From the NCBI GenBank assembly GCA_035276085.1, contig DATELY010000001.1, positions 1-20,353 of the forward strand: a stretch of 20,353 nt of DNA, written 5' to 3'. How positions within the stretch are numbered: the stretch's first letter is position 1; each line of letters starts with the position of its first letter. Origin of the DNA: Steroidobacteraceae bacterium. GTDB lineage: Bacteria; Pseudomonadota; Gammaproteobacteria; Steroidobacterales; Steroidobacteraceae. The translations under genes were made by a program, and so were the position numbers. A model generated the notes under the pieces. The model did no database searches. It worked only from the letters and a program-made list of their open reading frames with translations, and was not told where the DNA came from. Shown here piece after piece: positions 470 to 14,996 of the stretch.

Positions 470-2773
470 GTGGCACGGAGAAGAAAGGGGAGCTCTGGGG
501 GAATCGGAGGCGTCGTCGTCGGCGCCATCATCCTGATGATCGCAGCGATCCCGAAGGAGATGTGGATCGCGATCGGCGCCGTTGCTCTGATTACGCTCAT
601 TGTGTGGCTACTTTCGAAGTCCAAGCAGGCCACCGAGCCACCGGCAGAACACAATGCCGAGGAAGAAACGGCGCGCTTTGAAGAGGCTCCCAGAAAGACA
701 ATACAGCGGTCTCGACCCCCGGAGCCCAAAGGTCGCAGCGTCCCACCGCGTTGGGTGTCCACATCGGAAACGGTCGAGGTCGCCGGCACGTCGATTACTG
801 GCGGAATGCTGTACTTCGGCTCAGACCTACGCGCATCGAGCGGTGATATTGAGCCGGCTTTGATCGACCCGCGCCAACCCGTCGCGCGTGACAAGGCAGA
901 TCCTGCGCTCAGCCAGATGGGTTACTGGCCTAGCTATTCGTCGATTTCGCCCTCAGCGCGCCGCTGCTACGTCGAATGGCTGGCGTCCGGCCGAAGCGAT
1001 CCGCAGGCTGACATCGGGTACGTCTTTCTATTTTTCTACGGGCTCGAACGGCGAGCATTAGTTGATGCTCCGTCCGATCAGACTGCGAAGGCAGACCTGC
1101 CACTGATCGAAGAAGAAGTGAAGCGTCTGCTTCGTCTCTACGGGCACAGTCGTTCGTTCCGACGGTATGCAAGCTCGTTCCTCGACTTGCTAGTTTCACT
1201 GGGTGCCGGAGATTCGATCGACGAAGCGCCCCCGCCGCAGGCTACGGACGGTGAAATGTCACTCGAGCTCAGACTCGGTCTTGGACGCATGGCGATGAGC
1301 GGGCGACCAGTCCCAGCCGAATGGGCGCACGCCTGGATGCTCCGGGATCCACGTATCCCGTTCCCGAAGGCATTGCAGCGCTGTCCGGTCGAATCCGAGA
1401 AAATGTTCATGAGTCTCTACCGCGATCGTCACGGGGAAGGCATCAAGCTACCGGCCAATCGCACGAAACTGCGCCTGAGCTATCGGCCGGCATCAGGCGG
1501 CTTTAGCGGCACGGAGTTCCAACTCCCGACGGGCGACGTGCCGGATATCACAGCCGTCGTGGCGCCTGCGAAGAAGATTGAAGCTCTTGTGGAGGAATGC
1601 GCAGCGGTGCTAGCGCCGTATTCCCGCTACATCGCCAAGAATCCGGATCAAGGCCAATCGCTCGAAGCGATCCTGCTCCTGCCCCATTCGCTCTGGCCTG
1701 CAACGGCACGGGCGACCATGCAGACCCTCGATGAGCGGATTGGCAGCGGCTTGCGGGTCATGTCGCTGGGCGAGCTGGCCTCGTCGTTTGGTAGTCCCGG
1801 GGCACTCACGCGCGAGCGGATTCGTTCACTCGCGCACGCGCTCGAAGAGATTCACATCGGCATCGAACCTGACGTCCTCGCTGGGGCACGAACTCCAAAG
1901 GCCGATGATCGAATCATTCTTTTCCGCACCGAGCCCGAGGACGGCACGACTCGACAAACGCCCGTGTACCAGGCTGCCTCGGTTACGCTCGATCTGGCTT
2001 GCAGCGTCGCGATGGCTGACGGAAAGCCGCACGCGAATGAACTGCGCCTGTTGATGAAGCAGATCGATGGCTGGACGCAACTCACGGAGGCGCAGCGCAA
2101 GCGACTTCGAGCGCGCTTGCGGATGGCTATTGACGCACCTCCTTCGCTCGCTTCACTAAGAAGCAAGCTGGACATCATCCCTGTCGCAGGCAGACGGGCG
2201 ATCGCACATCTGCTGTCGACGCTGGCGCAGGCGGATGGGACCGTGGATGCATCTGAAGTTCGTCTGCTCGAGAAAATCTATAAGGCGCTCGGCATCGATA
2301 CCGACGTCGCCTACAGCGATCTGCATATCGCTGCAGCAGCGGCACCGACCACCAAAGCCCCGGCAGCGGTCGCGCCCGCTGCTCCGGCAGAGGGTCTCAC
2401 GCTAGACATGGAACGGATCGAAGCACTGCAACGCGAGACGGCACAAGTCTCTGCTCTGCTGTCCAAGGTATTCGCCGATGACGCTGCTGACTCGATCGAG
2501 ACACTGGAGGAGTTGGAGGAGACGCAGCCCGTTGGCGACGGGTGTTTGCTCGGGCTCGATGCCGAGCACAGCATTTTCCTGCGTTTGCTTTTGACTCGAT
2601 CGTCCTGGCCGCGGCAAGACCTGGCAGACGCGGCCGCAGACATGGAGATGATGCTCGATGGTGCGCTCGAGCGAATCAATGAGGCATCCTTCGAGCAGTT
2701 CGATGAGGCGCTAATCGACGGCGACGATCCGATCGAGATCTCGCGCGAGGTTCTGGAGAAGATCGCGGCATGA
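470..2773 (+). CDS. Membrane-anchored TerB-N / TerB / TerB-C domain protein (767 aa, GTG start)
   Basis: Long ORF with GTG start at 470 and AGGGG about 10 nt upstream. One N-terminal hydrophobic helix (GVVVGAIILMIAAIPKEMWIAIGAVALITLIVWLL). VEVAGTSITGGMLYFG fits my memory of the TerB-N signature. Two TerB-like helical repeats (SVTLDLACSVAMADGKPHANELRLLMKQIDGW and AIAHLLSTLAQADGTVDASEVRLLEKIYKALGID). Acidic helical C-terminus consistent with TerB-C. Its TGA stop overlaps the next ATG (ATGA at 2770-2773). Confidence 0.65.
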   Translation: MARRRKGSSGGIGGVVVGAIILMIAAIPKEMWIAIGAVALITLIVWLLSKSKQATEPPAEHNAEEETARFEEAPRKTIQRSRPPEPKGRSVPPRWVSTSETVEVAGTSITGGMLYFGSDLRASSGDIEPALIDPRQPVARDKADPALSQMGYWPSYSSISPSARRCYVEWLASGRSDPQADIGYVFLFFYGLERRALVDAPSDQTAKADLPLIEEEVKRLLRLYGHSRSFRRYASSFLDLLVSLGAGDSIDEAPPPQATDGEMSLELRLGLGRMAMSGRPVPAEWAHAWMLRDPRIPFPKALQRCPVESEKMFMSLYRDRHGEGIKLPANRTKLRLSYRPASGGFSGTEFQLPTGDVPDITAVVAPAKKIEALVEECAAVLAPYSRYIAKNPDQGQSLEAILLLPHSLWPATARATMQTLDERIGSGLRVMSLGELASSFGSPGALTRERIRSLAHALEEIHIGIEPDVLAGARTPKADDRIILFRTEPEDGTTRQTPVYQAASVTLDLACSVAMADGKPHANELRLLMKQIDGWTQLTEAQRKRLRARLRMAIDAPPSLASLRSKLDIIPVAGRRAIAHLLSTLAQADGTVDASEVRLLEKIYKALGIDTDVAYSDLHIAAAAAPTTKAPAAVAPAAPAEGLTLDMERIEALQRETAQVSALLSKVFADDAADSIETLEELEETQPVGDGCLLGLDAEHSIFLRLLLTRSSWPRQDLADAAADMEMMLDGALERINEASFEQFDEALIDGDDPIEISREVLEKIAA

Positions 2774-4065
2774 CAACCATCAAAGCGAAAGAGCGAGACA
2801 CGGTTATTCAAGCGCTGCGTGCCGGCGTCGTACCGCGCATTGGGCAACACCTGATCCAGGTCGGCCGCGCAAGAGAGATCGAGACACTCCTCCGGGACAT
2901 CGAACGCATCGCCGAGGCCGGTACAGGTTTTCGCCTAGTGATCGGCGAGTACGGCGCGGGGAAGACCTTCTTCCTGAATCTCGTACGTGCTATCGCGATG
3001 GAAAAGCGGCTCGTCACAGCGCACGCCGACCTGAATCCGGACCGACGCTTACAGGCTTCCGGAGGCCAGGCACGCTCACTTTATGCTGAGCTGATGAAGA
3101 ACCTCTCGACGCGCACCAAACCTGACGGCGGAGCACTGTCCGGTGTTGTTGAAAAGTTCGTCGCACAAGCGAAGACGGAAGCTAAGGCTGCATCCCGCAA
3201 TAGTGAAGACGTGATTCGAGAGAAGCTTTCGAGCTTGTCGGAACTCGTCGGTGGCTACGACTTCGCAGAAGTCATCGCCGCATATTGCCGCGGCTTCGAG
3301 GAAGGCAACGACAAGCTCAAGGCAGACGCGGTACGGTGGCTACGCGGCGAATTCACGACAAAGACGGACGCCAGAGCAGCCCTCGGGGTGCGGACGATTG
3401 TCGACGACGATGCGTTTTACGATCAGCTGAAGCTCTTTGCGCGCTTTGTCAGGTTGGCCGGCTTCTCAGGGCTACTGGTCTGTCTGGATGAAATGGTGAA
3501 TCTGTACAAGCTCGCCAATGCTCAGGCGCGCAATGCCAATTACGAGCAAGTACTGCGCATTCTGAACGATTCACTGCAAGGCTCAGCCGATGGTTTGGGC
3601 TTCGTGCTGGGAGGTACGCCGGAGTTCCTGCTCGACACGCGACGTGGTCTGTACAGCTACGCGGCGCTTCAATCTCGACTCTCCGAGAACACTTTTGCCG
3701 CGCAAGCCGGGCTGCAGGATTTCTCAGGCCCAGTCCTTCGACTATCGAGTCTGACGAATGAGGACTTCTTTGTGCTCCTGCAGAAGCTCAGACACGTCTA
3801 CGCGAGTGGCAACGAGTCGAAATATCTGCTCCCGGACGACGGGCTCATCGCCTTTATGCAACACGCTTCGAAACGCCTTGGAGAAGCGTACTTCCGGACC
3901 CCAAGAACAACGATCACGGCGTTCCTGAGTCTGCTTGCCACGCTTGAACAGCACCCGCAGGCGAATTGGCGCGAAATGCTGGGCGCCGTGGTCGTGGAGG
4001 AAGACAAGGAAGGCAATGACGAGGGAGCCACCGAGGATGACGAGCTCGCATCCTTCAAACTCTGA
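2770..4065 (+). CDS. P-loop ATPase, BrxD-like (DUF2791-type) ATP-binding protein
   Basis: 431-aa ORF. Walker A RLVIGEYGAGKTFFLNL and Walker B LLVCLDEMVNL. Size and motif spacing match the BrxD/DUF2791 family as I recall it. Start overlaps the upstream stop, suggesting translational coupling. Confidence 0.65.
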   Translation: MTTIKAKERDTVIQALRAGVVPRIGQHLIQVGRAREIETLLRDIERIAEAGTGFRLVIGEYGAGKTFFLNLVRAIAMEKRLVTAHADLNPDRRLQASGGQARSLYAELMKNLSTRTKPDGGALSGVVEKFVAQAKTEAKAASRNSEDVIREKLSSLSELVGGYDFAEVIAAYCRGFEEGNDKLKADAVRWLRGEFTTKTDARAALGVRTIVDDDAFYDQLKLFARFVRLAGFSGLLVCLDEMVNLYKLANAQARNANYEQVLRILNDSLQGSADGLGFVLGGTPEFLLDTRRGLYSYAALQSRLSENTFAAQAGLQDFSGPVLRLSSLTNEDFFVLLQKLRHVYASGNESKYLLPDDGLIAFMQHASKRLGEAYFRTPRTTITAFLSLLATLEQHPQANWREMLGAVVVEEDKEGNDEGATEDDELASFKL

Positions 4066-6265
4066 TGAATCCGGCTTTTCCCTCCTCCATCCGAGCATTC
4101 AGCGCTGGGTATGGTCAAAGGGGTGGACATCGCTGCGCGACGCTCAGGAGCGAGCGATCCGACCCATTTTGGAAGCCAGGGAAGACATCATCATTGCAGC
4201 GGCGACTGCCGCCGGAAAGACTGAAGCCGCGTTCCTACCCATCCTAACGAACATCGCCAATGCGGGTGAGGAATCAGCGCTCGCAATCTATGTCAGCCCC
4301 CTCAAAGCACTGATCAACGATCAGTGGGGGCGCCTCGAAGAGCTGTGCGAATCCCTCGAGCTGCCGGTTATTCCCTGGCATGGCGACATCCCAGCGAGCA
4401 GAAAGACCCGGTTCCTTAAGTATCCGCGTGGTGTTCTGCTGATCACCCCTGAATCGCTAGAAGCGATGTTTGTAACTCGAGGAAGTGAGACTCCGCGCCT
4501 GTTTGCAGCGTCTCAGCATGTCGTCATCGACGAGCTGCATGCTTTCATCGGCACCGACCGCGGCAAGCAGATGCAGTCTCTCCTCCACCGGATCGATGGT
4601 GCGGCCGCCAAGCGAATACCGAGAGTGGGACTCTCCGCGACGCTCGGAGACATGAAACTCGCCGCCTCATTCCTACGGCCGAACGAAGCTGAGCAGGTGC
4701 GCCTCATCGTTTCGCAAGGCGGCGGGCAGGAGCTTCGGATCCAGGTGCGCGGCTACCTCTGCCCTGCTTTCATCAAGAGCGACGAGAACGCGGAGCATCG
4801 CGACGAGCAAACCCTCGGCTCGGAAAATGCCATCGCGGACCATCTCTACCGGGTGCTTCGCGGCACCAACAATCTCATCTTTCCGAACTCGAGAAAGAAG
4901 GTCGAGTTCTACACCGACGCATTGCGCCAGCGCTGCGAGGCGAACGCAGTGCCCACTGAGTTCTGGCCTCATCACGGAAGTCTCGCACGGGCGATCAGAG
5001 AGGAAACGGAGAAGGCGCTCAAGCAAGGCGACCGGCCCGCAACCGCCATCTGCACGACGACACTGGAGCTGGGCATAGACATTGGGGCCGTACAGAGCGT
5101 CGCGCAGATCGGTCCCGGTCCGTCCGTGGCATCGCTTCGGCAGCGTTTGGGGCGCTCGGGACGACGCCAAGGCGAGCCTGCGATTCTACGTTCCTACAAT
5201 ATCGAGCAGGCGCTGACGGAGAAGTCTTCGCTCTCCGACTGCCTGCGCGAAGCGCTCGTACAGTCGATTGCAATGATTCGATTACTACTGCGAGGCTGGT
5301 TCGAGCCGCCTCACTCGAGCGGCCTGCACCTCTCCACGCTCGTTCAGCAGGTACTGTCCGTCATCGCGGAACGCGGTGGCGCACACGCAAGTCAGCTCTA
5401 TAGGTCGCTAATCAGCGAAGGTGCGTTTCACGGACTCTCATCGGCAGAGTTCGGCGAGTTCCTGAGTAGCCTCGGGAGCAAGGACCTCATCGCTCAGGAC
5501 CGGACGGGTCTGCTGCTCCTCGGAGAGGCCGGGGAACGATTCGTAGGTAGTCATGACTTTTACTCAGCCTTCACGTCCGAGGAAGAATGGCAGATCCTCT
5601 GCCAGGGCCAAACTATGGGCTCGCTGCCCATCAGCTCGCCGATCTTTCCGGGGATGCGATTGATATTCGCAGGACGACGATGGCAGGTTGTTGCCGTCGA
5701 TGAGGAGGCGCTTGTCGTGTCTGTCGCATCAGATCCAGGCGGCTTGCCGCCACTCTTTGGTGGCGGCAAAGCGAGCACGCACGACGTCGTACGACGCGAG
5801 ATGCGCGATGTGCTCGCTGCGAACGAGACGATTGGCTTCCTCGACTCGACCGCCTCCTCGCTGCTCGTCGAGGCTCGCCAGCAGTTTTCCAAGCTCAAGC
5901 TCGACGACACGCGTGTGATCAAGGCCGGCAACCTGACAACCGTGTTCACGTGGCGCGGCGACGCCGCCAACGATGCTCTAGTGCTGCTACTGCGCGGTCT
6001 CGGTATCGACAACGTCGAGAACGAGGGTCTCTATGTTGAAATCGCCAAGTGTGACGATGATCGGCTGCACGATGCCCTGTCGGATATCGCAGAGCTGCGC
6101 GATGTCGACTACATCAGCCTACTGACAGACGTATTCAACATGCGAAGGAGCAAGTGGGATTGGGTTCTCTCTGACTCACATCTCAGGAGATCGTTCGCCT
6201 CCTCGCATCTATCGTTTGAAGGCGCGCGTGCAATCGCACGCGAGTACGCAGATCTAAACCACTGA
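4037..6265 (+). CDS. Superfamily 2 DEAD/DEAH-box helicase, Lhr-like (BrxHI-like), with long C-terminal extension
   Basis: Motif I IIIAAATAAGKTEAAFLPIL, motif II VVIDELHAF (DEAH-type), motif III SATLG, motif VI-like LRQRLGRSGRR. About 350 aa follow the helicase core, as in Lhr-type proteins. The ORF track starts at 3935. I prefer ATG 4037 (GGAG 11 nt upstream; typical Lhr N-terminus FSLLHPSIQRWVWSKGW). ATG 4016 is also possible. Overlaps the upstream gene by 29 nt. Confidence 0.75.
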   Translation: MTSSHPSNSDESGFSLLHPSIQRWVWSKGWTSLRDAQERAIRPILEAREDIIIAAATAAGKTEAAFLPILTNIANAGEESALAIYVSPLKALINDQWGRLEELCESLELPVIPWHGDIPASRKTRFLKYPRGVLLITPESLEAMFVTRGSETPRLFAASQHVVIDELHAFIGTDRGKQMQSLLHRIDGAAAKRIPRVGLSATLGDMKLAASFLRPNEAEQVRLIVSQGGGQELRIQVRGYLCPAFIKSDENAEHRDEQTLGSENAIADHLYRVLRGTNNLIFPNSRKKVEFYTDALRQRCEANAVPTEFWPHHGSLARAIREETEKALKQGDRPATAICTTTLELGIDIGAVQSVAQIGPGPSVASLRQRLGRSGRRQGEPAILRSYNIEQALTEKSSLSDCLREALVQSIAMIRLLLRGWFEPPHSSGLHLSTLVQQVLSVIAERGGAHASQLYRSLISEGAFHGLSSAEFGEFLSSLGSKDLIAQDRTGLLLLGEAGERFVGSHDFYSAFTSEEEWQILCQGQTMGSLPISSPIFPGMRLIFAGRRWQVVAVDEEALVVSVASDPGGLPPLFGGGKASTHDVVRREMRDVLAANETIGFLDSTASSLLVEARQQFSKLKLDDTRVIKAGNLTTVFTWRGDAANDALVLLLRGLGIDNVENEGLYVEIAKCDDDRLHDALSDIAELRDVDYISLLTDVFNMRRSKWDWVLSDSHLRRSFASSHLSFEGARAIAREYADLNH

Positions 6266-6327
6266 TCAAGGAACACCACGCAGATGCCGAAGATGGACCT
6301 CGTCAAGAAGATTAGGGAATTCAAGGC

Positions 6328-9300
6328 ATGCTAGCAGCCCATCAATCGTTGCGACTAAGCGCCTCGGATCTCGTCGGCCATCTCAACTGCCGGCATCTGA
6401 CGGCCCTCGAGCTCGAGGCGACCAATGGAACGATCGAGCGCCCAACTTTCCGCGATCCATTGCTGGAAATCCTGTGGGAACGCGGCGCACTCCACGAACG
6501 CCAGTACGTGGACTATCTTGCGAAGGAAGGCTACGCGGTCATCCACATCGAGGGCGTTGGGATTACTCAGGAAGCTGTGCAGCAAACGCAGGCCGCGATG
6601 AAAGCAGGCACTGAGGTCATAGTACAGGCCGCGCTGTCTGGTGGACGCTGGGGCGGCCGGCCCGACATCCTCAGACGCGCCGCGGCACCAAGCGCGCTTG
6701 GGAATTGGTCGTACGAAGTCCTAGACACGAAGCTTGCGCGCGAGACTAGAGGCGGCACAGTCCTGCAACTCTGCCTCTATGCGGATCTTCTTGCCACCGC
6801 TCAGGGACTGTCGCCGGAGTACATGTATGTCGTGAAACCCGGTGCAACCTTTGAGCTGCAGCGCTTCCGGACAGCCAGCTACGAAGCGTACTACCGATAC
6901 GTCAAACGTAGTCTTGAACGTTCGCTTGAGGCCGGTGACGCGACATATCCGAACCCGAAGGAGCACTGCGAGATCTGCCGCTGGCGCATGCAGTGCAACC
7001 TCAAGCAACGGCACGATGACCACCTGTGCCTTGTCGCAGGAATCACGAAAATACAGATTGGTGAGCTCCAGCGCTACGGAATTCACACTGCCGCCGCGCT
7101 CGCACGGATGCCCGTCCCATTACAGTGGAAGCCTGAGCGAGGAGTACCTCAGTCCTACGAGCGATCGCGTGAGCAGGCGCGCGTCCAAGTCGCAGCTCGT
7201 ACGTCGGGGCACCCAATCTACGAGACCATCCCACCGGAGCCCGGGATCGGACTGGCTCGACTGCCGGAACCATCGCCTGGCGACATCTTCTTCGATCTCG
7301 AGGGCGATCCATTCGTGGGTGAGGGTGGCCTTGAATTCCTTTTCGGCTACCTATTCCTCAGCGAGAATGGCGAGCAGTCCCATGTCGGAGAGTGGGCCTT
7401 CAATCGCAATGACGAACAACGCGCCTTCGAGCGCTTTGTTGATTTCACAATGGCGCGCTGGTCGCGGCATCCCGCGATGCACGTCTACCACTATGCATCT
7501 TACGAACCAGGCGCACTGAAGCGCCTGATGGGACGTTACGCCACGCGAGAGGACGAAGTAGACCGCATGCTTCGTGGCGGCCTGTTTGTCGATCTCTACA
7601 CGATCGTGCGGCAAGGCATTCGCGCCAGTGTCGAGAGCTATTCGATCAAGAATCTGGAAGTTTTCTGTGGCTTCACTCGTAAGGTGCCACTCGCCGACGT
7701 GCGCCCTGCCCTCGCGACCGTGCAGGCCGCATTGGAGCTTGCAGACTTAGCACAGGTCAGCGAGCAGGATCGGGAGATCGTCGAAGCGTACAACCGAGAT
7801 GATTGCGCTTCTGCCCAGGCGCTGCGCAATTGGCTGGAGGCTGTTCGGGCAAAGCTGATCACGGAAAGGGCAACGATCGCGCGCCCCGCGGCCGAGTCTT
7901 CCGAGCCCACACAGGAAATCGGCGAGCGCCAGCAACAGATCGAAGCACTGGTCGCCAGACTGACGCAGGGTGTCCCAGCAGAAATCGAAGGTCGCACTGC
8001 CGAGCAGCAAGGCCGATGGATCCTGGCCTACACGCTGGATTGGCACCGGCGCGAGCTCAAGTCGGTCTGGTGGGAATACTTTCGGCTCTCCGACCTGACC
8101 GTAGATGACCTTCTCGACGAGCGTTCCGCACTCGCGGGACTAGAGTTCATCCAGGAGATTGGCGGCACGAAGAAGGCCCCGATTCATCGCTATCGCTTCC
8201 CGGCTCAAGACACCGATCTGAGACCAGGGGACACACTCTGCATGGTGGGTGGTGAAAATCTCGGTCGGATCGAAGCTGTCTCGTATGAGGATCGAACGAT
8301 CGACATCAAGAAGCGAATGGACACCGCATCCGTGCATCCGCAGGCGGTCTTCGAGCATGACCTCGTCGGCACCAATGAGCAGGCCGATGCGCTGATGCGG
8401 CTCGGCATGCATGTGGCGGAACATCGGATAGAAGGGGATGGTCCGTATCAAGCAGCGCGCGATCTGCTGCTGCGTCGGTCACCGGTTGTTTCCCCCGTAC
8501 GCCATGCTGGCGAGACAACGCTGGCTGCGGCGACTCGTCTGGCTCCGATGCTTTCCTCCGGCGTATTGCCCATCCAGGGGCCGCCGGGTGCGGGCAAAAC
8601 GTACACCGCCGCACGCATGATTTGCGAGCTGGTTCGAGCTCGAAAGAAAGTCGGAATCACCGCCAACAGTCACAAGGTCATTCGCAACCTACTAAATGAG
8701 GTCGTGAAAGCAGCTGATGATCTAAATGTCGATATCTCTTGCGTTCAGAAGCCCGGGGAGCCCGAAGAGGATGTTCATCGCATCCGGTTCGCCAGAAAGA
8801 ACGAGGATGTCTTCGCCGCACTCGCTGGGAATTGCGATGTTGCCGGCGGAACCTCGTGGCTCTGGGCGCGCAAAGAGGCATTTGAGTCGGTCGATGTTCT
8901 GTTCGTGGATGAAGCAGCGCAGATGTCTCTCGCGAACGTGCTTGCAGTGGCGCACGCATGCAAGACGCTCATTCTCGTGGGCGACCCACAGCAACTGGAG
9001 CAACCTACGAAGGGCAGCCACCCTGAAGGTACGGACGTATCGGCGCTGCATCATATGCTTGGCGGCAAACCAACCATTGAAGCCGAACAAGGTCTGTTCC
9101 TCGAGGAAACCTGGCGGCTACATCCTGCTATCTGCAAATTCACTTCCGAACTTTTCTACGAGGACAAACTTCGACCCCGTCCTGGCCTCGAGCGCCAAAC
9201 GATCCGTTCGACGCGAGCGAATGGATCAGGACTGCGTTTCTTTGCTGTGGCACACGAAGGCAACCAGAACTCAGCGCCCGAGGAAGCCGATCAGATTCGC

Positions 9301-9705
9301 GCAATTGTTGACGACATCCTCGGCACAAGGAGCACTTGGGTCGACGCGAAAGGCAAGGAGCTGCCGCTTGAGCCCACAGATCTCCTCATCATCGCACCCT
9401 ACAATGCGCAGGTCTTCGAACTTCAGGAGCGCCTACCTGCCTTTCGCGTTGGTACCGCCGACAAGTTCCAGGGCCAGGAAGCACCGATCGTGATCTATTC
9501 GATGACCACTTCCACTCACGCTGACGCCCCACGAGGGATGGAGTTTTTGTACAGCTTAAACCGATTGAACGTTGCAACGTCGCGAGCGAAGTGCCTATGT
9601 ATTCTCGTAGGGTCGCCGGCGCTGTTTGAACCCGAATGCAAGACGCCTGGGCAAATGGAATTAGCGAATGCGTTCTGCCGATATCTGGAGATGGCTACAA
9701 GCTAG
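6328..9705 (+). CDS. Nuclease-helicase fusion: Cas4/RecB-family PD-(D/E)xK nuclease with Fe-S cysteines + DnaQ/RNase-H-like domain + SF1B (Upf1/DNA2-like) helicase
   Basis: N-terminal nuclease motifs: GRPDIL (motif II), YEVLDTKLA (E-x-D-x-K motif III), QLCLYADLL (QhxxY). Cys ligands: one Cys in LNCRHLTALE plus CEICRWRMQC (C-x2-C-x5-C), the Cas4/AddB 4Fe-4S pattern. Mid-region DIFFDLEGDPF and YHYASYEPG resemble DnaQ-like exonuclease I/II motifs. C-terminal helicase: Walker A IQGPPGAGKTYTAA, Walker B VLFVDEAAQM, LILVGDPQQL, motif VI VATSRAKCLCILVG. Confidence 0.8.
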   Translation: MLAAHQSLRLSASDLVGHLNCRHLTALELEATNGTIERPTFRDPLLEILWERGALHERQYVDYLAKEGYAVIHIEGVGITQEAVQQTQAAMKAGTEVIVQAALSGGRWGGRPDILRRAAAPSALGNWSYEVLDTKLARETRGGTVLQLCLYADLLATAQGLSPEYMYVVKPGATFELQRFRTASYEAYYRYVKRSLERSLEAGDATYPNPKEHCEICRWRMQCNLKQRHDDHLCLVAGITKIQIGELQRYGIHTAAALARMPVPLQWKPERGVPQSYERSREQARVQVAARTSGHPIYETIPPEPGIGLARLPEPSPGDIFFDLEGDPFVGEGGLEFLFGYLFLSENGEQSHVGEWAFNRNDEQRAFERFVDFTMARWSRHPAMHVYHYASYEPGALKRLMGRYATREDEVDRMLRGGLFVDLYTIVRQGIRASVESYSIKNLEVFCGFTRKVPLADVRPALATVQAALELADLAQVSEQDREIVEAYNRDDCASAQALRNWLEAVRAKLITERATIARPAAESSEPTQEIGERQQQIEALVARLTQGVPAEIEGRTAEQQGRWILAYTLDWHRRELKSVWWEYFRLSDLTVDDLLDERSALAGLEFIQEIGGTKKAPIHRYRFPAQDTDLRPGDTLCMVGGENLGRIEAVSYEDRTIDIKKRMDTASVHPQAVFEHDLVGTNEQADALMRLGMHVAEHRIEGDGPYQAARDLLLRRSPVVSPVRHAGETTLAAATRLAPMLSSGVLPIQGPPGAGKTYTAARMICELVRARKKVGITANSHKVIRNLLNEVVKAADDLNVDISCVQKPGEPEEDVHRIRFARKNEDVFAALAGNCDVAGGTSWLWARKEAFESVDVLFVDEAAQMSLANVLAVAHACKTLILVGDPQQLEQPTKGSHPEGTDVSALHHMLGGKPTIEAEQGLFLEETWRLHPAICKFTSELFYEDKLRPRPGLERQTIRSTRANGSGLRFFAVAHEGNQNSAPEEADQIRAIVDDILGTRSTWVDAKGKELPLEPTDLLIIAPYNAQVFELQERLPAFRVGTADKFQGQEAPIVIYSMTTSTHADAPRGMEFLYSLNRLNVATSRAKCLCILVGSPALFEPECKTPGQMELANAFCRYLEMATS

Positions 9706-9791
9706 GAGCTACGAAGTAAGCGATTAAGCTACCGCCTCGGGAACGCGCTGCCGATTAACTAATTCAGTTTGAAATCGGTGTTGGTGTATCA

Positions 9792-9817
9792 GGGAACTTG
9801 GGAGTTCCTCATTTCTT
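9792..9817 (+). terminator. Possible intrinsic terminator after the four-gene operon (GGAACT-TGGG-AGTTCC hairpin followed by TCATTTCTT)
   Basis: 6-bp perfect stem, 4-nt loop and a T-rich tail about 90 nt after the ORF4 stop. Short stem and imperfect U-tract. Confidence 0.3.
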
Positions 9818-10430
9818 GGAATCACTCTTCCAATGGGATCTTTTCCTTCGGCTAGATGACGGCTCACCGGACCATGACGCACAATGCGACGCTGCGAGCT
9901 TCATCAAATAGCTAACGGCACGCGCAGCTCGCGAGATGTACTCGCATCAACGCAGCACTGAGACACACGCCATGCTTTCGCACGAAGCAGTTGCACACGT
10001 AATAAAGCGTGCTAATCTCCGCGCGTATTCATTGACACGCGGCCGCGCGCCGCACAACTGAAGCGAAACTGAAATGCTCTCCATCCACGGAACAGCCATG
10101 CAAAGCACGCTACGCGAATTAAATCGCGCCGCGGTCGGCTGCCCGTCGATTACGGGTAGCTGGTCACGGCCTGTCGCGAAAAATCATCGCGACTTCGGGA
10201 CCGAACTCGATCGGTAACCGCCTTTAGGGCTCTTTGCCCCCGAAGGCGCAAGCCGGACGGGGCACCCACGGGAGCCTAGCCACCTGAGATCCCTCTCAGA
10301 GTCGGCGAAAACCACCCAAAACAGTGTTCCGTCCGCGAGGTAAAGCCCTCGATACGGATTCGTACGCGCTACGCGTATGGACCCCTGCGCCGCACGTTCG
10401 GCCAGGACGCTGTTTAACAATCAGAAATTG

Positions 10431-10595
10431 ATCAGGGCTCTCACCCTGATTTCGCATTGCGCACTGAATTCTTCAGCGGCGCGGCACGCGCGCGCGTCGA
10501 ACACGCGGTGATGTGTTTGTGAAGTGGAGGGTGAGAGCCCGGAGCTGGTGAGAAATTTTTTGAAGCACGTGAAAGCGTGAGGGTCTCACTCGCTC
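10431..10595. repeat. Repeated/inverted motif AGGGYTCTCAC upstream of the tRNA array: hairpin ATCAGGG-CTCTCA-CCCTGAT (10431-10450), inverted copy GGGTGAGAGCCC (10529-10540), third direct copy GGGTCTCAC (10582-10590); also a (CG)5 tract
   Basis: Read directly. The 12-mer GGGCTCTCACCC and its exact reverse complement lie about 83 nt apart. A one-mismatch direct copy lies about 15 nt before the first tRNA. Confidence 0.5.
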
Positions 10596-10603
10596 TGAAA
10601 TTT

Positions 10604-10679
10604 GCGGATGTAGCTCAATTGGCAGAGCGCGAGTCTTCCAAACTCGAGGTCATGGGTTCGATCCCCATCGTCCGCCCCA
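10604..10679 (+). tRNA. tRNA-Gly (anticodon TCC), CCA encoded
   Basis: Cloverleaf: acceptor GCGGATG/CGTCCGC, D-arm TAGCTCAATTGGCAGAGC, anticodon stem CGAGT/ACTCG with loop CTTCCAA, T-arm ATGGG-TTCGATC-CCCAT, discriminator C, CCA. Confidence 0.85.
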
Positions 10680-10737
10680 GATTTCGATGCACGTTGCGAC
10701 TCTCATGCGAGTTGAACGTGTGCATCTTAGTTGATTC

Positions 10738-10814
10738 GCGGATGTAGTTCAGTCAGGCAGAACACGACGTCGCCAACGTCGAGGCCATGGGTTCGAGTCC
10801 CATCGTCCGCACCA
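10738..10814 (+). tRNA. tRNA-Gly (anticodon GCC), CCA encoded
   Basis: Same acceptor as the preceding Gly. Anticodon stem CGACG/CGTCG with loop TCGCCAA. T-loop TTCGAGT. Paralog of the upstream Gly gene. Confidence 0.85.
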
Positions 10815-10823
10815 CTCAAGTTT

Positions 10824-10908
10824 GCCGACGTGGTTGAACTGGCAGACACGCCAGCCCGAGGAGCTGGTAGCGAAAGCTTTGCCGGTTCGAGTCCGGCCGT
10901 CGGCACCA
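10824..10908 (+). tRNA. tRNA-Leu (anticodon GAG), class II, CCA encoded
   Basis: Acceptor GCCGACG/CGTCGGC. Anticodon stem CCAGC/GCTGG with loop CCGAGGA (unusual C32 C33). Long variable arm. T-arm GCCGG-TTCGAGT-CCGGC. Aligns with E. coli Leu-GAG architecture. Confidence 0.7.
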
Positions 10909-10948
10909 ATGTGTGATTTCGTTCGTTAAACCACATAAGGAGAATGTC

Positions 10949-12166
10949 ATGAGCCTCGAGGAAATGACGAAGATCGACAACCTGAAGTCATGGATCTCGG
11001 GTGTCGACATCGATTGGGACACGGTGAAGCAGCTGCGCAACATCGCGGAGCTGCCGATCCTCGCAGGTCACGTGGCCGTGATGCCGGACGTGCATCTCGG
11101 CAAGGGCGCAACTGTGGGATCGGTGATTCCGACCAAGGGCGCGATCATTCCGGCTGCGGTCGGCGTGGACATCGGCTGCGGTATGGCGGCCGTGCGCACG
11201 GAGATCTCCGCGAATCAGTTGCCGGACTCGCTGCGTCGACTGCGCTTGCGCATCGAAGAGCGTGTGCCGGTCGGATTCAACTCGCACGATCGACCGCTCA
11301 ATCCTCTGCACGATGGCTTGCGCGGGGTTGCACTGTCGAATGCCGGCAAGAAGATGGCGGAGCGGTACAACACGCTCAAGATCATGGACGTCATCGGCAA
11401 GCACGACCACAAGCGCACGTACAACCAGCTGGGAACGCTGGGCGGCGGCAACCACTTCATCGAGCTGTGTGTCGATGAGTCGAACGGCGTGTGGGTAATG
11501 CTTCACTCCGGCTCGCGCAACATCGGCAAGACGATCGGGGAGACGGCGATCCACATGGCGCGCCAGATTGCGGAACGCGAGGAGCGCGGGCTGCGTGACC
11601 GCGACCTTGCGTGGCTTGACGAAGGTTCGGCCGAGTTCGACATGTACGTCGAAGGCCTGCGCTGGGCGCAAGACTATGCGGCTCACAACCGCGCTTTGAT
11701 GATGCACGAGGTGCTGGTCGCGCTTCGTGAGGAGTTCGGGCGCGAGATCGCGATGTTCGAGAACGCAGTCCAGTGTCACCACAACTATGCATCGGTCGAA
11801 GAGCACTTCGGCCAACAGGTGTGGGTAACCCGCAAGGGCGCGGTATCGGCGCGTCGCGACGAGCTCGGCATCATCCCTGGCTCAATGGGTGCCAAGTCGT
11901 TCATCGTGCGCGGTAAGGGCAATGCAGATTCGTATTGCTCCTGCTCGCATGGCGCCGGTCGTCGCCTCTCTCGCGGCGCTGCGAAGCGGACTTACACGCT
12001 CGCGGATCTGAAGAGGCAGACGGAAGGCGTCGAGTGCCGCAAGGACGAAGGCGTGCTCGATGAGATCCCGGGCGCCTACAAGGACATCGATATGGTCATG
12101 GCTGCGCAGGCCGACCTCGTCGACGTCGTACATACCTTGAAGCAAGTGATGTGCATCAAGGGTTGA
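10949..12166 (+). CDS. rtcB: RtcB-family 3'-phosphate/5'-hydroxyl RNA ligase
   Basis: RBS AAGGAGA 5 nt before ATG 10949. The ORF track's 10913 start lacks an RBS. Hallmark RtcB motifs: LGTLGGGNHFIEL, AVQCHHNYA (GMP-histidine region), CSCSHGAGRR, and the metal-binding-type HLGKGATVGS. Confidence 0.9.
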   Translation: MSLEEMTKIDNLKSWISGVDIDWDTVKQLRNIAELPILAGHVAVMPDVHLGKGATVGSVIPTKGAIIPAAVGVDIGCGMAAVRTEISANQLPDSLRRLRLRIEERVPVGFNSHDRPLNPLHDGLRGVALSNAGKKMAERYNTLKIMDVIGKHDHKRTYNQLGTLGGGNHFIELCVDESNGVWVMLHSGSRNIGKTIGETAIHMARQIAEREERGLRDRDLAWLDEGSAEFDMYVEGLRWAQDYAAHNRALMMHEVLVALREEFGREIAMFENAVQCHHNYASVEEHFGQQVWVTRKGAVSARRDELGIIPGSMGAKSFIVRGKGNADSYCSCSHGAGRRLSRGAAKRTYTLADLKRQTEGVECRKDEGVLDEIPGAYKDIDMVMAAQADLVDVVHTLKQVMCIKG

Positions 12167-12212
12167 TGTCTCTTCGAGGGTTGGGTGTACGGATGCACCC
12201 GACTCTCACTCT

Positions 12213-12365
12213 GCACCGGTAGCTCAATTGGTATGGTCGAGACCATTTCCGTTGGTCGGAGTTGCGGTTTCGCCGCTCCTGCGCGTCCATGCGCCCGCGG
12301 CATTCGCACATCCGTGTGCAGCACAAAACCGCCTGTTGGGGGTTCGAGTCCCTCCCGGTGTGCCA
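12213..12365 (+). tRNA. Aberrant 153-nt tRNA-like locus: 5' acceptor + D-arm start (GCACCGG TA GCTCAATTGGTA...) and 3' T-arm/acceptor/CCA (GGGGG-TTCGAGT-CCCTC CCGGTGT G CCA) separated by about 85 nt of extra hairpin-rich sequence; isotype undetermined
   Basis: Acceptor halves pair (GCACCGG/CCGGTGT with G1-U72). T-loop TTCGAGT and CCA are canonical. No standard anticodon arm was found by eye. A possible anticodon stem GCGGT...ACCGC flanks a roughly 55-nt insert. Confidence 0.4.
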
Positions 12366-12379
12366 CTTTTTCAAATGAT

Positions 12380-12464
12380 CCGTTCCTGGCGGAACTGGTA
12401 GACGCGCTGGGCTCAGAACTCAGTGTCTTCGGACATCCCGGTTCGACTCCGGGGGAACGGACCA
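12380..12464 (+). tRNA. tRNA-Leu (anticodon CAG), class II, CCA encoded
   Basis: Acceptor CCGTTCC/GGAACGG. D-arm TGGCGGAACTGGTAGACGCG as in E. coli Leu. Anticodon stem CTGGG/CTCAG with loop CTCAGAA. Variable arm GTGTC-TTCG-GACAT. T-arm CCCGG-TTCGACT-CCGGG. Confidence 0.8.
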
Positions 12465-12482
12465 CAACATCGTCTGATCTAC

Positions 12483-12694
12483 GCGGGCGTAGCGGAAAAG
12501 GTAAACGCGACCCTAAAACGTGAAGAGGGAAAGCCGAAGAGGCTACGCGGGTAATCAGCCGAGGCACGTGGTTGCGGATGCACCGAATGGCTACGCGAGT
12601 GGTCGCCAGGGAAGCGCGTTTCCAAGCCGACGCTGTCTTCGAGTAATGATCGGAGTTCCGCGATGTGCAGGTTCGAATCCTGTCGCCCGCACCA
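12483..12694 (+). tRNA. Aberrant 212-nt tRNA-like locus: 5' GCGGGCG TA GCGG... and 3' GCAGG-TTCGAAT-CCTGT CGCCCGC A CCA with perfectly complementary acceptor strands separated by about 135 nt; insert contains GGCTACGCG(G/A)G repeated three times
   Basis: Canonical T-arm, discriminator and CCA at the 3' end. A perfectly complementary 7-nt acceptor partner lies 200 nt upstream. Too short for a group I intron. Could be an interrupted or intron-containing tRNA, or a pseudogene plus fragment. Confidence 0.3.
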
Positions 12695-12710
12695 ATACTT
12701 CTTGAGCCGT

Positions 12711-12798
12711 GCGCTCCTGGTTGGAACTGGAAGACACGCCGCGCTTAAAACGCGGTGCTCATTCGAGCGTGCCGGTTCGAATCCGGCGGAGCGCACCA
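12711..12798 (+). tRNA. tRNA-Leu (anticodon TAA), class II, CCA encoded
   Basis: Acceptor GCGCTCC/GGAGCGC. Anticodon stem CCGCG/CGCGG with loop CTTAAAA. Variable arm GCTC-ATTC-GAGC. T-arm GCCGG-TTCGAAT-CCGGC. Confidence 0.85.
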
Positions 12799-12814
12799 CT
12801 GGTTCGATTCTTTC

Positions 12815-12900
12815 GCGTCCCTGGTTGGAATTGGAATACACGCTGCGCTCAAAACGCAGTGCCTTCGGGCATGCCGGTTCGAATCCGGCGGGACGCACCA
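12815..12900 (+). tRNA. tRNA-Leu (anticodon CAA), class II, CCA encoded
   Basis: Paralog of the preceding Leu-TAA (same D-arm and T-arm). Anticodon stem CTGCG/CGCAG with loop CTCAAAA. Variable arm TGCC-TTCG-GGCA. Confidence 0.85.
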
Positions 12901-12908
12901 GTTTCTGC

Positions 12909-12985
12909 GGATCGTTAGCTCAATTGGCCAGAGCATCCGGTTCTTACCCGGCAGGTTGAAGGTTCGATTCCTTCACGGTCCACCA
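12909..12985 (+). tRNA. tRNA-Lys (anticodon CTT), CCA encoded
   Basis: Acceptor GGATCGT/ACGGTCC. Anticodon stem TCCGG/CCGGC (27-43 mismatch) with loop TTCTTAC. T-loop TTCGATT. Confidence 0.75.
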
Positions 12986-13001
12986 ACATCACCTTGTGCA
13001 G

Positions 13002-13076
13002 GGGCGTGTAGCTCAAGGGTTAGAGCATCCGGCTTTTAACCGGACGGCGAGGGTTCGATCCCCTCCGCGCCCACCA
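13002..13076 (+). tRNA. tRNA-Lys (anticodon TTT), CCA encoded
   Basis: Acceptor GGGCGTG/CGCGCCC. Anticodon stem TCCGG/CCGGA with loop CTTTTAA. T-arm GAGGG-TTCGATC-CCCTC. Confidence 0.85.
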
Positions 13077-13078
13077 CT

Positions 13079-13152
13079 TGGGGCTTCGTCTAGCGGCAGG
13101 ACATCGCGCTTTGAACGCGAGAACTCAGGTTCGAACCCTGGAGCCCCAGCCA
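13079..13152 (+). tRNA. tRNA-Gln (anticodon TTG), CCA encoded
   Basis: U1-A72 acceptor TGGGGCT/AGCCCCA (a Gln hallmark). Anticodon stem TCGCG/CGCGA with loop CTTTGAA. T-loop TTCGAAC. Discriminator G. Confidence 0.85.
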
Positions 13153-13167
13153 CACGCGATTGCGAAT

Positions 13168-13243
13168 GCCACGTTAACTCAGCGGCCAGAGTGCTCGCCT
13201 GTCTAGCGAGAAGTCACGGGTTCGAATCCCGTACGTGGCGCCA
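13168..13243 (+). tRNA. tRNA-Asp (anticodon GTC), CCA encoded
   Basis: Acceptor GCCACGT/ACGTGGC. Anticodon stem CTCGC/GCGAG with loop CTGTCTA. T-arm ACGGG-TTCGAAT-CCCGT. Discriminator G. Confidence 0.85.
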
Positions 13244-13249
13244 GATCAC

Positions 13250-13325
13250 GCACCGATAGCTCAGCTGGTAGAGCGCCTGGTTGAAGCCCAGGAGGCCGCA
13301 GGGTCGAAACCTGCTCGGTGCACCA
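13250..13325 (+). tRNA. tRNA-Phe (anticodon GAA), CCA encoded, atypical T-loop GTCGAAA and G37
   Basis: Acceptor GCACCGA/TCGGTGC. Anticodon stem CCTGG/CCAGG with loop TTGAAGC. T-stem GCAGG/CCTGC with loop GTCGAAA (G at position 54). Confidence 0.7.
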
Positions 13326-13335
13326 CTTTCATCGT

Positions 13336-13411
13336 TGGCCAGTAGCTCAGTTGGCAGAGCACTCCGCTGTTACCGGAGCCGTCACAGGTTCGAGTCCTGT
13401 CTGGCCAGCCA
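13336..13411 (+). tRNA. tRNA-Asn (anticodon GTT), CCA encoded
   Basis: Acceptor TGGCCAG/CTGGCCA (U1-A72). Anticodon stem CTCCG/CGGAG with loop CTGTTAC. T-arm ACAGG-TTCGAGT-CCTGT. Confidence 0.8.
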
Positions 13412-13445
13412 CATCTTTTGAATAGCGAACCAAGAGGAGAACGCG

Positions 13446-13688
13446 ATGACTTCGATCAAAGAGATGGTGGCGAACGGCCGCAAAGTTCGATTCACGCACT
13501 ACAAGTCCGGTGAGCTCTGGTACGAGACGGAGTGCGGATTCGCATTCCCTGTACCGACCGCGGATGCAGGCGACGGATGTTTCCTAGCTGAAGACAAGGC
13601 GCTGCTGTTCATGCGCTACATCAGGAAGCACAAAGAGGTGCTCGATCACGCGCGTGCTGACGCTGAGTCCGCCGACCAACAGCCATAG
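13446..13688 (+). CDS. Hypothetical small protein (80 aa) embedded in the tRNA array
   Basis: Strong RBS AAGAGGAGA 6 nt before ATG 13446. ORF sits in an otherwise tRNA-only interval. No recognisable motif. Followed by a hairpin-rich repeat. Confidence 0.5.
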   Translation: MTSIKEMVANGRKVRFTHYKSGELWYETECGFAFPVPTADAGDGCFLAEDKALLFMRYIRKHKEVLDHARADAESADQQP

Positions 13689-13695
13689 GTGAAGT

Positions 13696-13917
13696 CCCTT
13701 TACGCGAGGTCCCGAAGGCCCGGCCTCGCGAGAGCTCGGAACTCACTCTTGGGACACACGGGACGCGCGCGAACACGCGCGTTCGGGCCGCACTGATTCG
13801 ACGCTTTGACCAGGCCCTTTGCGCGAGAGTCCACCGCCCCAACCTCGCGAGGAGCATAGATACGCCTCCTTGGGACGAACGGGAACGCCGCAGATTCTGC
13901 GGTCAGTACTCGGGGCC
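13696..13917 (+). repeat. Tandem direct repeat, two copies of a roughly 100-nt element (copy A 13696-13789, copy B 13815-13917, period about 119 nt) with conserved blocks CCCTTTRCGCGAG / CCTCGCGAGRAGC / CTTGGGACRMACGGGA / CGGGCC and hairpins at matching positions built from different sequence
   Basis: Read directly. First hairpin CGCGAGG...CCTCGCG in both copies. Second hairpin ACGCGCG-CGAACA-CGCGCGT in A versus CCGCAG-ATT-CTGCGG in B. Same position, different sequence, which suggests a conserved RNA or DNA structure. Confidence 0.5.
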
Positions 13918-13928
13918 CCAACACACTC

Positions 13929-14003
13929 GCACGTATAGCTCAGCGGGAGAGCGCCGCTCTTACAAAGCGGAAGTCCTTGGTTCAATCCCAAGTGCGTGCG
14001 CCA
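13929..14003 (+). tRNA. tRNA-Val (anticodon TAC), CCA encoded
   Basis: Acceptor GCACGTA/TGCGTGC. Anticodon stem CCGCT/AGCGG with loop CTTACAA. T-arm CTTGG-TTCAATC-CCAAG. Confidence 0.85.
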
Positions 14004-14009
14004 CTTCAT

Positions 14010-14087
14010 GCGACGTTAGCTCAGATGGAACAGAGCGCCGGTTTGCGATGCCGGAGGCCGAAGGTTCAAGTCCTTCACGTCGCACCA
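14010..14087 (+). tRNA. tRNA-Arg (anticodon GCG), CCA encoded
   Basis: Acceptor GCGACGT/ACGTCGC. Anticodon stem CCGGT/GCCGG with loop TTGCGAT. T-arm GAAGG-TTCAAGT-CCTTC. Confidence 0.75.
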
Positions 14088-14094
14088 CATGTTC

Positions 14095-14171
14095 GCTCTC
14101 ATCGTCTAGTTGGACCAGGACACCTCCCTCTCACGGAGAAGACTGGAGTTCGAATCTCCATGAGAGCGCCA
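14095..14171 (+). tRNA. tRNA-Glu (anticodon CTC), CCA encoded
   Basis: Acceptor GCTCTCA/TGAGAGC. Glu-type D-arm TCGTCTAGTTGGACCAGGACA. Anticodon stem CCTCC/GGAGA (27-43 mismatch) with loop CTCTCAC. T-arm TGGAG-TTCGAAT-CTCCA. Confidence 0.8.
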
Positions 14172-14176
14172 CTGTT

Positions 14177-14255
14177 CGTTCCCGTCGTCTAGCCCGGCTC
14201 AGGACGCCGCCCTTTCAAGGCGAGAACACGAGTTCGAATCTCGTCGGGAACACCA
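14177..14255 (+). tRNA. tRNA-Glu (anticodon TTC), CCA encoded
   Basis: Acceptor GTTCCCG/CGGGAAC. Anticodon stem CCGCC/GGCGA with loop CTTTCAA. T-arm ACGAG-TTCGAAT-CTCGT. Confidence 0.8.
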
Positions 14256-14287
14256 ACCACGCGCGCATCTGGCGCGTACGAATTGAT

Positions 14288-14362
14288 TGGGAAGTCGTCT
14301 AACCGGCAGGACAGCGGACTCTGACTCCGCGAATGTGGGTTCGAGCCCTACCTTCCCAACCA
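14288..14362 (+). tRNA. tRNA-Gln (anticodon CTG), CCA encoded
   Basis: U1-A72 acceptor TGGGAAG/CTTCCCA. Anticodon stem GCGGA/TCCGC with loop CTCTGAC. T-arm GTGGG-TTCGAGC-CCTAC. Confidence 0.8.
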
Positions 14363-14378
14363 ACGCAAAGCTCACGAT

Positions 14379-14456
14379 GGTGGCGTTAGCTCAGTCGGTC
14401 AGAGTCCCGAGCTGTGAACTCGGAGGTCGTGGGTTCGAACCCCACACGTCGCCCCA
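14379..14456 (+). tRNA. tRNA-His (anticodon GTG) with encoded G-1 and C73, CCA encoded
   Basis: Extra 5' G before acceptor GTGGCGT pairs with discriminator C, the bacterial His hallmark. Anticodon stem CCGAG/CTCGG with loop CTGTGAA. T-arm GTGGG-TTCGAAC-CCCAC. Closely resembles E. coli tRNA-His. Confidence 0.85.
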
Positions 14457-14464
14457 ACTTCAAC

Positions 14465-14540
14465 GCCGAGATAGCTCAGCAGGCAGAGCAGCTGCTTCGT
14501 AAGCAGCATGTGGTCGGTTCGACTCCGACTCTCGGCTCCA
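14465..14540 (+). tRNA. tRNA-Thr (anticodon CGT), CCA encoded
   Basis: Acceptor GCCGAGA/TCTCGGC. Anticodon stem GCTGC/GCAGC with loop TTCGTAA. T-arm GTCGG-TTCGACT-CCGAC. Discriminator T. Confidence 0.85.
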
Positions 14541-14551
14541 TACTCTTGATC

Positions 14552-14639
14552 GCACTCGTGGCCGAGCGGCTGAAGGCGCCGGACTGCAATTCCGGTGAGC
14601 ACATGCTCCACGTCAGTTCGAATCTGACCGAGTGCTCCA
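14552..14639 (+). tRNA. Class II (long variable arm) tRNA with Cys anticodon GCA and U73 discriminator; Ser-like D-arm (TGGCCGAGCGGCTGAAGGC)
   Basis: Perfect acceptor GCACTCG/CGAGTGC. 3-bp D-stem GCC/GGC with a Ser-type D-loop. Anticodon stem CCGGA/TCCGG with loop CTGCAAT. 16-nt variable arm TGAGCACATGCTCCAC (GAGCA/TGCTC stem). T-arm GTCAG-TTCGAAT-CTGAC. T73, CCA. Confidence 0.65.
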
Positions 14640-14650
14640 CTCTCTTCTTC

Positions 14651-14991: not shown

Positions 14992-14996
14992 TCTTC

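Follow-up and report, generated by a model that had tools for sequence, protein, structure and literature searches.

The window considered here, i.e., the whole stretch of 20,353 nucleotides (nt) from contig DATELY010000001.1 of a Steroidobacteraceae bacterium, carries on its forward (+) strand an open reading frame (ORF) at 6328..9705 that begins with ATG and codes for 1125 amino acids (aa) followed by a stop codon. It stands directly downstream of the three genes of a Shango defence system and is followed by a dense array of tRNA genes. The gene is real: protein database searches recover more than 6861 homologues at E<=1e-10, and a search restricted to the N-terminal 730 aa still reaches 8938 representatives of 50%-identity clusters, with E<=1e-30 for 2116 of these, so that the reading frame cannot be put down to chance. 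The alignments with the homologues start at residue 1, consistent with the ATG. The best database match, HKQ80583.1 (‘MAG TPA: TM0106 family RecB-like putative nuclease [Steroidobacteraceae bacterium]’), is identical to the product, and the whole gene can be described as a TM0106/COG2251-family nuclease-exonuclease-helicase.

The NCBIfam model TIGR03491 (TM0106 family RecB-like putative nuclease) is matched from end to end, aa 11-503 covering positions 2-462 of its 462 with a score of 251.7 bits, well above the cutoff of 97.45. The Pfam domains follow in the order PDDEXK_1 (aa 36-224, a weak match), RNase_H_2/PF13482 (aa 320-503, 1.8e-16, 60.9 bits against a cutoff of 22), AAA_11 (with AAA_30 and AAA_19 at about aa 741-897) and AAA_12 (aa 920-1096, 1.9e-25). 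The protein is thus a canonical full-length member of TM0106/COG2251, a catalogued family with thousands of members, which has the same domain order (PD-(D/E)XK, PF13482, AAA_11/AAA_12) and the same length of ~1130 aa, and from which it shows no structural difference. This architecture is already known, being named in NCBI and published in 2014: Majorek et al. 2014 (PMC3985635) had noted the layout of PD-(D/E)XK, PF13482 and tandem AAA domains for COG2251, their PF13482 cluster F.13. The initial annotation, made from the sequence alone, took the exonuclease region for an unusual addition, a view that has to be abandoned, as this region belongs to the defining half of TIGR03491. The family name, for its part, carries no functional information.

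Of the 150 top-ranking representatives obtained with the N-terminal 730 aa, 94 have a length of 1100-1199 aa, the very best being 1100-1160 aa, and the alignments of the full-length ones span ~aa 7-722, so that the exonuclease, the stalk/barrel and the helicase go together. Full-length homologues occur in Alpha- and Gammaproteobacteria, Acidobacteriota, Bacteroidota, Chloroflexota, Planctomycetota, Myxococcota and others, and also in metagenome-assembled genomes (MAGs) of Thermotogae and Spirochaetes. A full-length copy is further present in 60 plasmid records, the annotated plasmid copies among the matches listed being mostly named ‘TM0106 family RecB-like putative nuclease’. A search of phage genomes with the N-terminal 730 aa gave no match, and a sequence search of the PDB matched the helicase part only, with no solved structure matching the N-terminal half.

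Domain architecture and conservation of the active sites

The AlphaFold2 model, built with 120 homologues, reaches a pLDDT of 87.8 and a pTM of 0.80 over the full length and a pLDDT of 91.4 over the N-terminal 520 aa. Conservation was assessed with 98 full-length cluster representatives at 35-55% identity, the counts given below being out of 99 sequences, and with a second set of 120 close homologues. The 1125-aa ORF, all of the motif strings quoted in the initial annotation, the four-cysteine pattern and the full SF1 motif set are present at the expected places, and profiles, fold matches and conservation agree with its assignment of a Cas4-like nuclease, a DEDD-type exonuclease and an Upf1/DNA2-type helicase domain. 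All features described in this section lie on the + strand.

The N-terminal Cas4/Dna2-type ‘iron-staple’ PD-(D/E)XK nuclease domain (6328..7032, aa 1-235) bears the motifs GRPDIL (nt 6655-6672, aa 110-115), EVLDTK (nt 6715-6732, aa 130-135) and QLCLY (nt 6766-6780, aa 147-151), with D113, D133-x-K135 and Q147-x3-Y151 as the catalytic residues. D113 and K135 are retained in 98/99 sequences each, D133 in 96/99 (with E in the other 3), and both Q147 and Y151 in 99/99. An N-terminal cysteine, C21 (nt 6388-6390), is kept in 96/99, and the three-cysteine cluster C214-x2-C217-x5-C223 (nt 6967-6996) in 99/99; the doubt about the conservation of these cysteines that had been attached to the first assignment is hence removed. 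The RecB motifs and the four conserved cysteines are together those of the iron-staple RecB-family nucleases (the AddB/Dna2/Cas4 class), and the four-cysteine site is probably a 4Fe-4S site. The AlphaFold2 fold agrees, with matches to Cas4 at 14.1-14.3 over 196/218 aligned residues. The nuclease domain is followed by a helical linker (7033..7212, aa 236-295, from the AlphaFold2 secondary structure), in which the stretch LVAGITKIQIGELQRYGIHTAAALA (nt 7030-7104) may, judging by its pattern, be helix-hairpin-helix-like.

The central PolB-type DEDDy 3'-5' exonuclease domain (PF13482; 7213..7863, aa 296-512) has the ExoI motif DIFFDLEGDPF (nt 7282-7314, aa 319-329) with its D323-x-E325, an ExoII-like variant, H388-x3-Y392-E393 (nt 7489-7506), and the ExoIII motif Y488-x3-D492 (nt 7789-7803). 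D323 and E325 are retained in 98/99 sequences each, and E393, Y488 and D492 in 96/99 each. An RNase-H-like fold, the DxE of ExoI, an acidic residue in ExoII and the Yx3D of ExoIII are thus all in place, as in the PolB-exo-like DEDD exonucleases of PF13482, and the AlphaFold2 model matches the exonuclease domains of family-B polymerases at 13-14.3. Motifs and fold matches point to a site of the DEDDy type that is nearer to the PolB exonucleases than to DnaQ (DEDDh). Of the earlier label ‘DnaQ-like’, the exonuclease domain therefore stands, but the DnaQ type gives way to a PolB-type DEDDy fold. Both structural likenesses on which the initial annotation had staked its reading, of the N-terminus to Cas4/RecB nucleases and of the mid-domain to RNase-H-fold exonucleases, are present.

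The C-terminal half consists of a helical stalk and a beta-barrel (7885..8532, aa 520-735, with the strands at aa 601-676 in the AlphaFold2 model) and an SF1B (UPF1-like) helicase core (8533..9702, aa 736-1125). A stalk/barrel accessory module of this kind is characteristic of the whole UPF1/DNA2-like helicase family (PMC10542128). The core displays the Walker A motif GPPGAGKT (nt 8578-8601, aa 751-758), motif II DEAAQ (nt 8908-8922, aa 861-865), motif III GDPQQL (nt 8980-8997, aa 885-890), motif V TADKFQGQE (nt 9454-9480, aa 1043-1051) and motif VI NVATSRA (nt 9568-9588, aa 1081-1087), with K757 and D861 retained in 98/99 sequences each, E862 in 99/99 and R1086 in 97/99. Motifs I-VI, the stalk helices and a beta-barrel on the first RecA domain are together the features of a UPF1/DNA2-like SF1B helicase. 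In structure the motor comes closest to IGHMBP2 (489 residues aligned), Upf1 and SETX, all RNA/DNA helicases, and Dna2 is matched at 18.8 over 551 aligned residues. By family membership only, the motor would be expected to move with a 5'-3' polarity. All three enzymatic modules are under purifying selection, with their active sites intact.

The Shango genes, the deletion scar and the tRNA array

The three genes upstream are SngA (TerB_N/TerB/TerB_C; 470..2773, PADLOC 2e-108), SngB (BrxD-like ATPase; 2770..4065, 9.7e-183) and SngC (DEAD/Lhr-like helicase; 4037..6265, 1.1e-274), all on the + strand. Positions 470-6265 of the window are hence a complete three-gene Shango system directly upstream of the 1125-aa gene. 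A 94%-identical homologue (L001) carries SngABC, SIR2, HerA and KTSC genes and then the nuclease-helicase gene in a tightly packed series, with integrases after it. The start of SngC is most likely the ATG at 4037 and not the first in-frame start codon at 3935; from this ATG it codes for 742 aa, equal to its length in L001, and overlaps the end of SngB by 29 nt as it does there. Between SngC and the 1125-aa gene lies a spacer of 62 bp, the two genes being on the same strand, and a consensus scan found no terminator-like site between them. A terminator-like hairpin, seen by consensus scan only, follows at 9792..9819 (+), ~90 bp past the stop codon of the 1125-aa gene, and a scan of 1-11000 for sigma-70 promoters found none.

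Positions 1-6325 of the window align with 519-6844 of L001 and positions 6355-9698 with 10028-13374. In the 62-bp spacer the opening ~15 codons of SIR2 can be recognised (MPKMDLVKKIREFK vs MSKLDVVKEIRELK at the SIR2 start in L001), and this remnant is joined to the start codon of the 1125-aa gene at a shared GCATGC. Since the spacer region, 6266-6334, is the 5' end of SIR2 and the cassette is intact in L001, the window is a ~3.2-kb deletion derivative of an SngABC-SIR2-HerA-KTSC-gene array, and the direct adjacency of Shango and the gene is the scar of the SIR2-HerA-KTSC deletion. It is through this loss alone that the gene would have come to lie at the distal end of the Shango transcription unit. 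The remnant persists as a mini-ORF at 6284..6334 on the + strand (MPKMDLVKKIREFKAC followed by a stop codon), which aligns with the SIR2 start in L001. It ends 4 nt past the ATG of the 1125-aa gene, so that its stop codon overlaps the start region, and this overlap may couple the translation of the two.

The 1125-aa gene's stop codon is the precise point at which the synteny with L001 breaks off, and the tRNA array beyond it is therefore a separate mobile unit. This dense array has 26 co-directional tRNA genes (10604-15073 and 17322-17395), with rtcB, coding for an RtcB RNA ligase, embedded after the third tRNA (10913-12166) and an HNH endonuclease gene directly after the array (15106-15678). 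It corresponds to the ‘L-arrays’ that Santamaria-Gomez et al. 2021 (PMC8421152) describe as spreading horizontally, the neighbourhoods of which are enriched in rtcB and homing endonucleases. An Rfam scan of the window returned tRNAs only; tRNA-Leu (cag) at 12380-12464 and tRNA-Leu (caa) at 12815-12900 are ARAGORN calls that Rfam missed at the gathering threshold. A gap of ~520 bp in the array (13412-13928) contains an 80-aa ORF (13446-13688) with no Pfam match. Beyond the array lie genes for a HEAT-repeat protein (15742-17097), an SPFH/Band-7 protein (17702-18937, + strand) and a flotillin-like protein (19206-20345, - strand), and a 510-aa ORF at 17504-19036 on the opposite strand, with no family match, is probably spurious.

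Family neighbourhoods and possible functions

When the neighbours of family members were clustered at 78 genome loci (four genes per side), only SngC (6 loci), SngB (5) and SngA (4) recurred, all other families being found at 3 loci or fewer. Shango is present at 5/80 family loci. The Shango-linked copies come from five separate lineages: the window together with L001, Bradyrhizobium (L006), Erythrobacter (L013 and L015), a Thermotogae MAG (L024) and Mucilaginibacter (L039, with a divergent TerB_C protein). The linked copies fall on five separate branches of the neighbour-joining tree of the family, and in every case Shango and the gene are adjacent and co-directional, several loci having gaps of 23-62 bp. 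On the assumption that no more than a few per cent of genomes have Shango, the adjacency would exceed what chance yields. Between linked loci the SngA proteins share only 31-33% identity, and they form no cluster; with the linked family members likewise scattered in the tree, a particular Shango subtype that carries the gene was rejected. The reverse test took in 80 metagenomic Shango loci, of which 61 are complete; for 34-37 of these the flank on the relevant side exceeds 4 kb. None of the 61 complete loci carries a member of the TM0106-helicase family, and no recurrent neighbour of Shango was found in these metagenomic loci.

Elsewhere the family neighbours include many restriction or abortive-infection type genes. 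The family is patchily distributed, and even related genomes do not share the same neighbourhood. Overall, the neighbourhood is mixed but defence-enriched. On the Rhizobium johnstonii plasmid NZ_CP140847.1 (L163, 1292-16858), the family gene sits between an imuA-imuB-dnaE2/dinB mutasome cluster and a SIR2-HerA-KTSC cassette that is only 29-40% identical to that of L001; here the gene is annotated as two coding sequences (a nuclease and a ‘DEAD/DEAH box helicase’) with an overlap of ~90 nt, probably due to a frameshift. On the Ensifer adhaerens plasmid NZ_CP118613.1 (L164, 2134-12390), a TM0106-helicase gene is tightly clustered, in one direction and beside repABC, with three others, for a hypothetical protein, a DrmD-like SNF2 helicase (3e-103) and a TmtA-like protein (6.5e-51). 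The four genes are a possible candidate for a composite defence operon.

The architecture is ordinary, and the gene sits here in a phage-defence island. The explanation that we favour, with moderate confidence, is that of an autonomous ATP-driven enzyme degrading DNA ends and flaps, resident in defence islands or mobile elements and acting against foreign DNA. The motor would load on a 5' single-stranded tail or a DNA end and track 5'->3'; the Fe-S nuclease, placed ahead of the motor, would cut the tracked strand, as in Dna2 and in the Geobacillus enzyme Bad, and the DEDDy domain, travelling the same way, might digest the complementary strand from its 3' end. In this manner one chain could degrade both strands of linear, nicked or flapped DNA, and would destroy foreign or replicating DNA ends autonomously and not as a core Shango subunit. 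The full-length copies in 60 plasmid records, Shango as the only recurrent neighbour family and Bad as an analogue speak for this explanation, and the absence of the gene from all 61 complete Shango loci and the deletion scar in the window speak for its autonomy from Shango. The initial annotation had placed the protein with DNA2/AddB-like and Nhi-type anti-phage effectors: the likeness to Dna2 holds at the level of the fold, that to Nhi fell away, as no Nhi model matched, and an anti-phage role is drawn from the neighbourhood alone. Several points weigh against the favoured explanation: no PADLOC model spans the whole protein; a literature search on the TM0106 family returned no relevant paper on function; many neighbourhoods lack a defence character (L002 with genes for PDH, sigma/FecR and TonB, other loci with MFS and MCP genes); the imuA-imuB-dnaE2 and dinB genes beside one plasmid copy (L163) point to repair; the neighbour-joining tree of the family broadly tracks taxonomy, which is less typical for highly mobile defence genes; UPF1-like helicases can act on RNA as well; and how the two nucleases would be coordinated is conjecture.

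A broader claim is possible, albeit doubtful: the TM0106-helicase family might represent an unrecognised and very widespread single-protein system against mobile elements, or a plug-in effector common to Shango, SIR2-HerA and others, in which two different nucleases on one SF1B motor would degrade both strands of invading linear or replicating DNA and so make a one-chain functional analogue of RecBCD/AddAB for immunity.

Among the rival explanations, the one that survives best, though on balance it seems unlikely, is a housekeeping or SOS-type DNA repair enzyme, i.e., a one-chain analogue of RecBCD/AddAB resection or a Dna2-like processor of flaps and stalled forks, for which the island location would be incidental. 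The domain logic is that of the Dna2 and AddB resection machines, and the mutasome genes adjoining the L163 copy, the ordinary metabolic neighbours at L002 and several other loci, the rough agreement of the tree with taxonomy and the lack of a corresponding PADLOC system all fit such a role. However, a repair enzyme is harder to square with the patchy distribution and the plasmid copies, with a defence system as the sole recurrent neighbour, with the many adjoining restriction or abortive-infection type genes and with neighbourhoods that differ even in related genomes.

Improbable, and kept only as a minor rival, is a Shango variant with the protein as its fourth subunit and effector, in which SngABC would sense infection and recruit or activate the nuclease-helicase against phage DNA, thereby supplying the nuclease that Shango itself lacks. 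The co-directional adjacency in five lineages with SngA proteins so divergent, the short gaps and the lack of a terminator-like site after SngC in the window are in its favour, as would be, if it is of the TM0106 family, the ‘large multi-domain helicase’ noted beside the Shango of P. aeruginosa PA14 (Johnson et al.; cDHS1, PMC10250203). Yet three-gene Shango alone is protective in experiments (Johnson et al.), 0 of the 34-37 evaluable Shango loci carry the gene, Shango has no recurrent neighbour, only 5/80 family loci have Shango, and the adjacency in the window stems from the loss of a SIR2-HerA-KTSC cassette still present in L001; as a general rule, a fourth Shango gene was accordingly rejected.

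Finally, action mainly on RNA or RNA:DNA hybrids such as phage transcripts or R-loops, a mode suggested for MkoA of Mokosh and for the UPF1-like helicases of CoCoNuT, is very improbable: the motor's closest folds are RNA/DNA helicases, PADLOC matches MkoA to the helicase part at 5e-42 and the island includes a tRNA array and RtcB, but Cas4/Dna2-type Fe-S nucleases and PolB-type exonucleases are DNA enzymes, Bad as the closest characterised analogue works on DNA, there is no PLD partner as in Mokosh, and the tRNA array is a separate mobile unit beyond the point where the L001 synteny stops.

What remains of interest is what such a family, thousands of members strong and with three active sites conserved, does in the cell. 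If the protein indeed is a stand-alone or accessory defence nuclease-helicase, a common system would be added to the defence catalogues, and the coordinated degradation of two DNA strands could be studied in a compact model. The pairing with Shango, recurrent though not obligatory, could in turn help to explain the action of Shango, a system without a known effector.

Comparison with known systems

With Shango, the 1125-aa gene shares its place in the window, directly downstream on the same strand, and adjacency in four further lineages; it is nevertheless not among the three defining genes, and the PADLOC Sng models match the three upstream genes only. Mokosh MkoA and Nhi are likewise found in defence islands and combine a UPF1-like SF1 helicase with a nuclease, either fused or as a partner, but their nuclease types differ from those found here. 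Both were rejected as identities for the protein: the match to MkoA is limited to aa 821-1106 in the helicase and no PLD gene is present in the window, and no Nhi model is found among the 14 PADLOC matches at E<=0.01.

Cas4 (TIGR00372) has only the fold in common with the N-terminal domain, which in the 1125-aa protein is fused to an exonuclease and a motor; Cas4 itself was set aside with 20.3 bits against the TIGR00372 cutoff of 65 and with no cas genes or CRISPR array in the window. A phylogenomic study of Cas4 covers UvrD-Cas4 fusions and not the TM0106 family. Eukaryotic/archaeal Dna2 (PDB 5EAN/5EAW) is without a 3'-5' exonuclease domain, whereas the 1125-aa protein has an exonuclease of ~220 aa inserted, and in the PDB sequence search the similarity between them is confined to the C-terminal helicase (E 1e-8, aa 1014-1098). 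With the extra exonuclease domain and sequence homology in the helicase only, the protein was not taken for a Dna2 orthologue.

The closest characterised analogue is Bad, the DNA2-like helicase-nuclease of Geobacillus stearothermophilus (Wilkinson et al. 2020, PMC7430649; WP_053413574), a 5'-3' translocase with an Fe-S cluster that acts as a single-stranded DNA endonuclease at 5' overhangs and whose gene adjoins a Type III-like methyltransferase. Bad is longer (1245 aa) and annotated as an AAA ATPase and not as TM0106. Its central domain is reported to lack detectable homology, whereas the centre of the 1125-aa protein, compared with it by description only, is a clear DEDDy exonuclease. In other respects the two have the same layout in one chain, which opens with a four-cysteine iron-staple RecB-family nuclease, has a further domain at its centre and ends in an SF1B motor, of 5'-3' polarity in Bad. 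Bad, with its sporadic distribution and restriction-like neighbour, is the only bacterial enzyme of this layout to have been studied biochemically.

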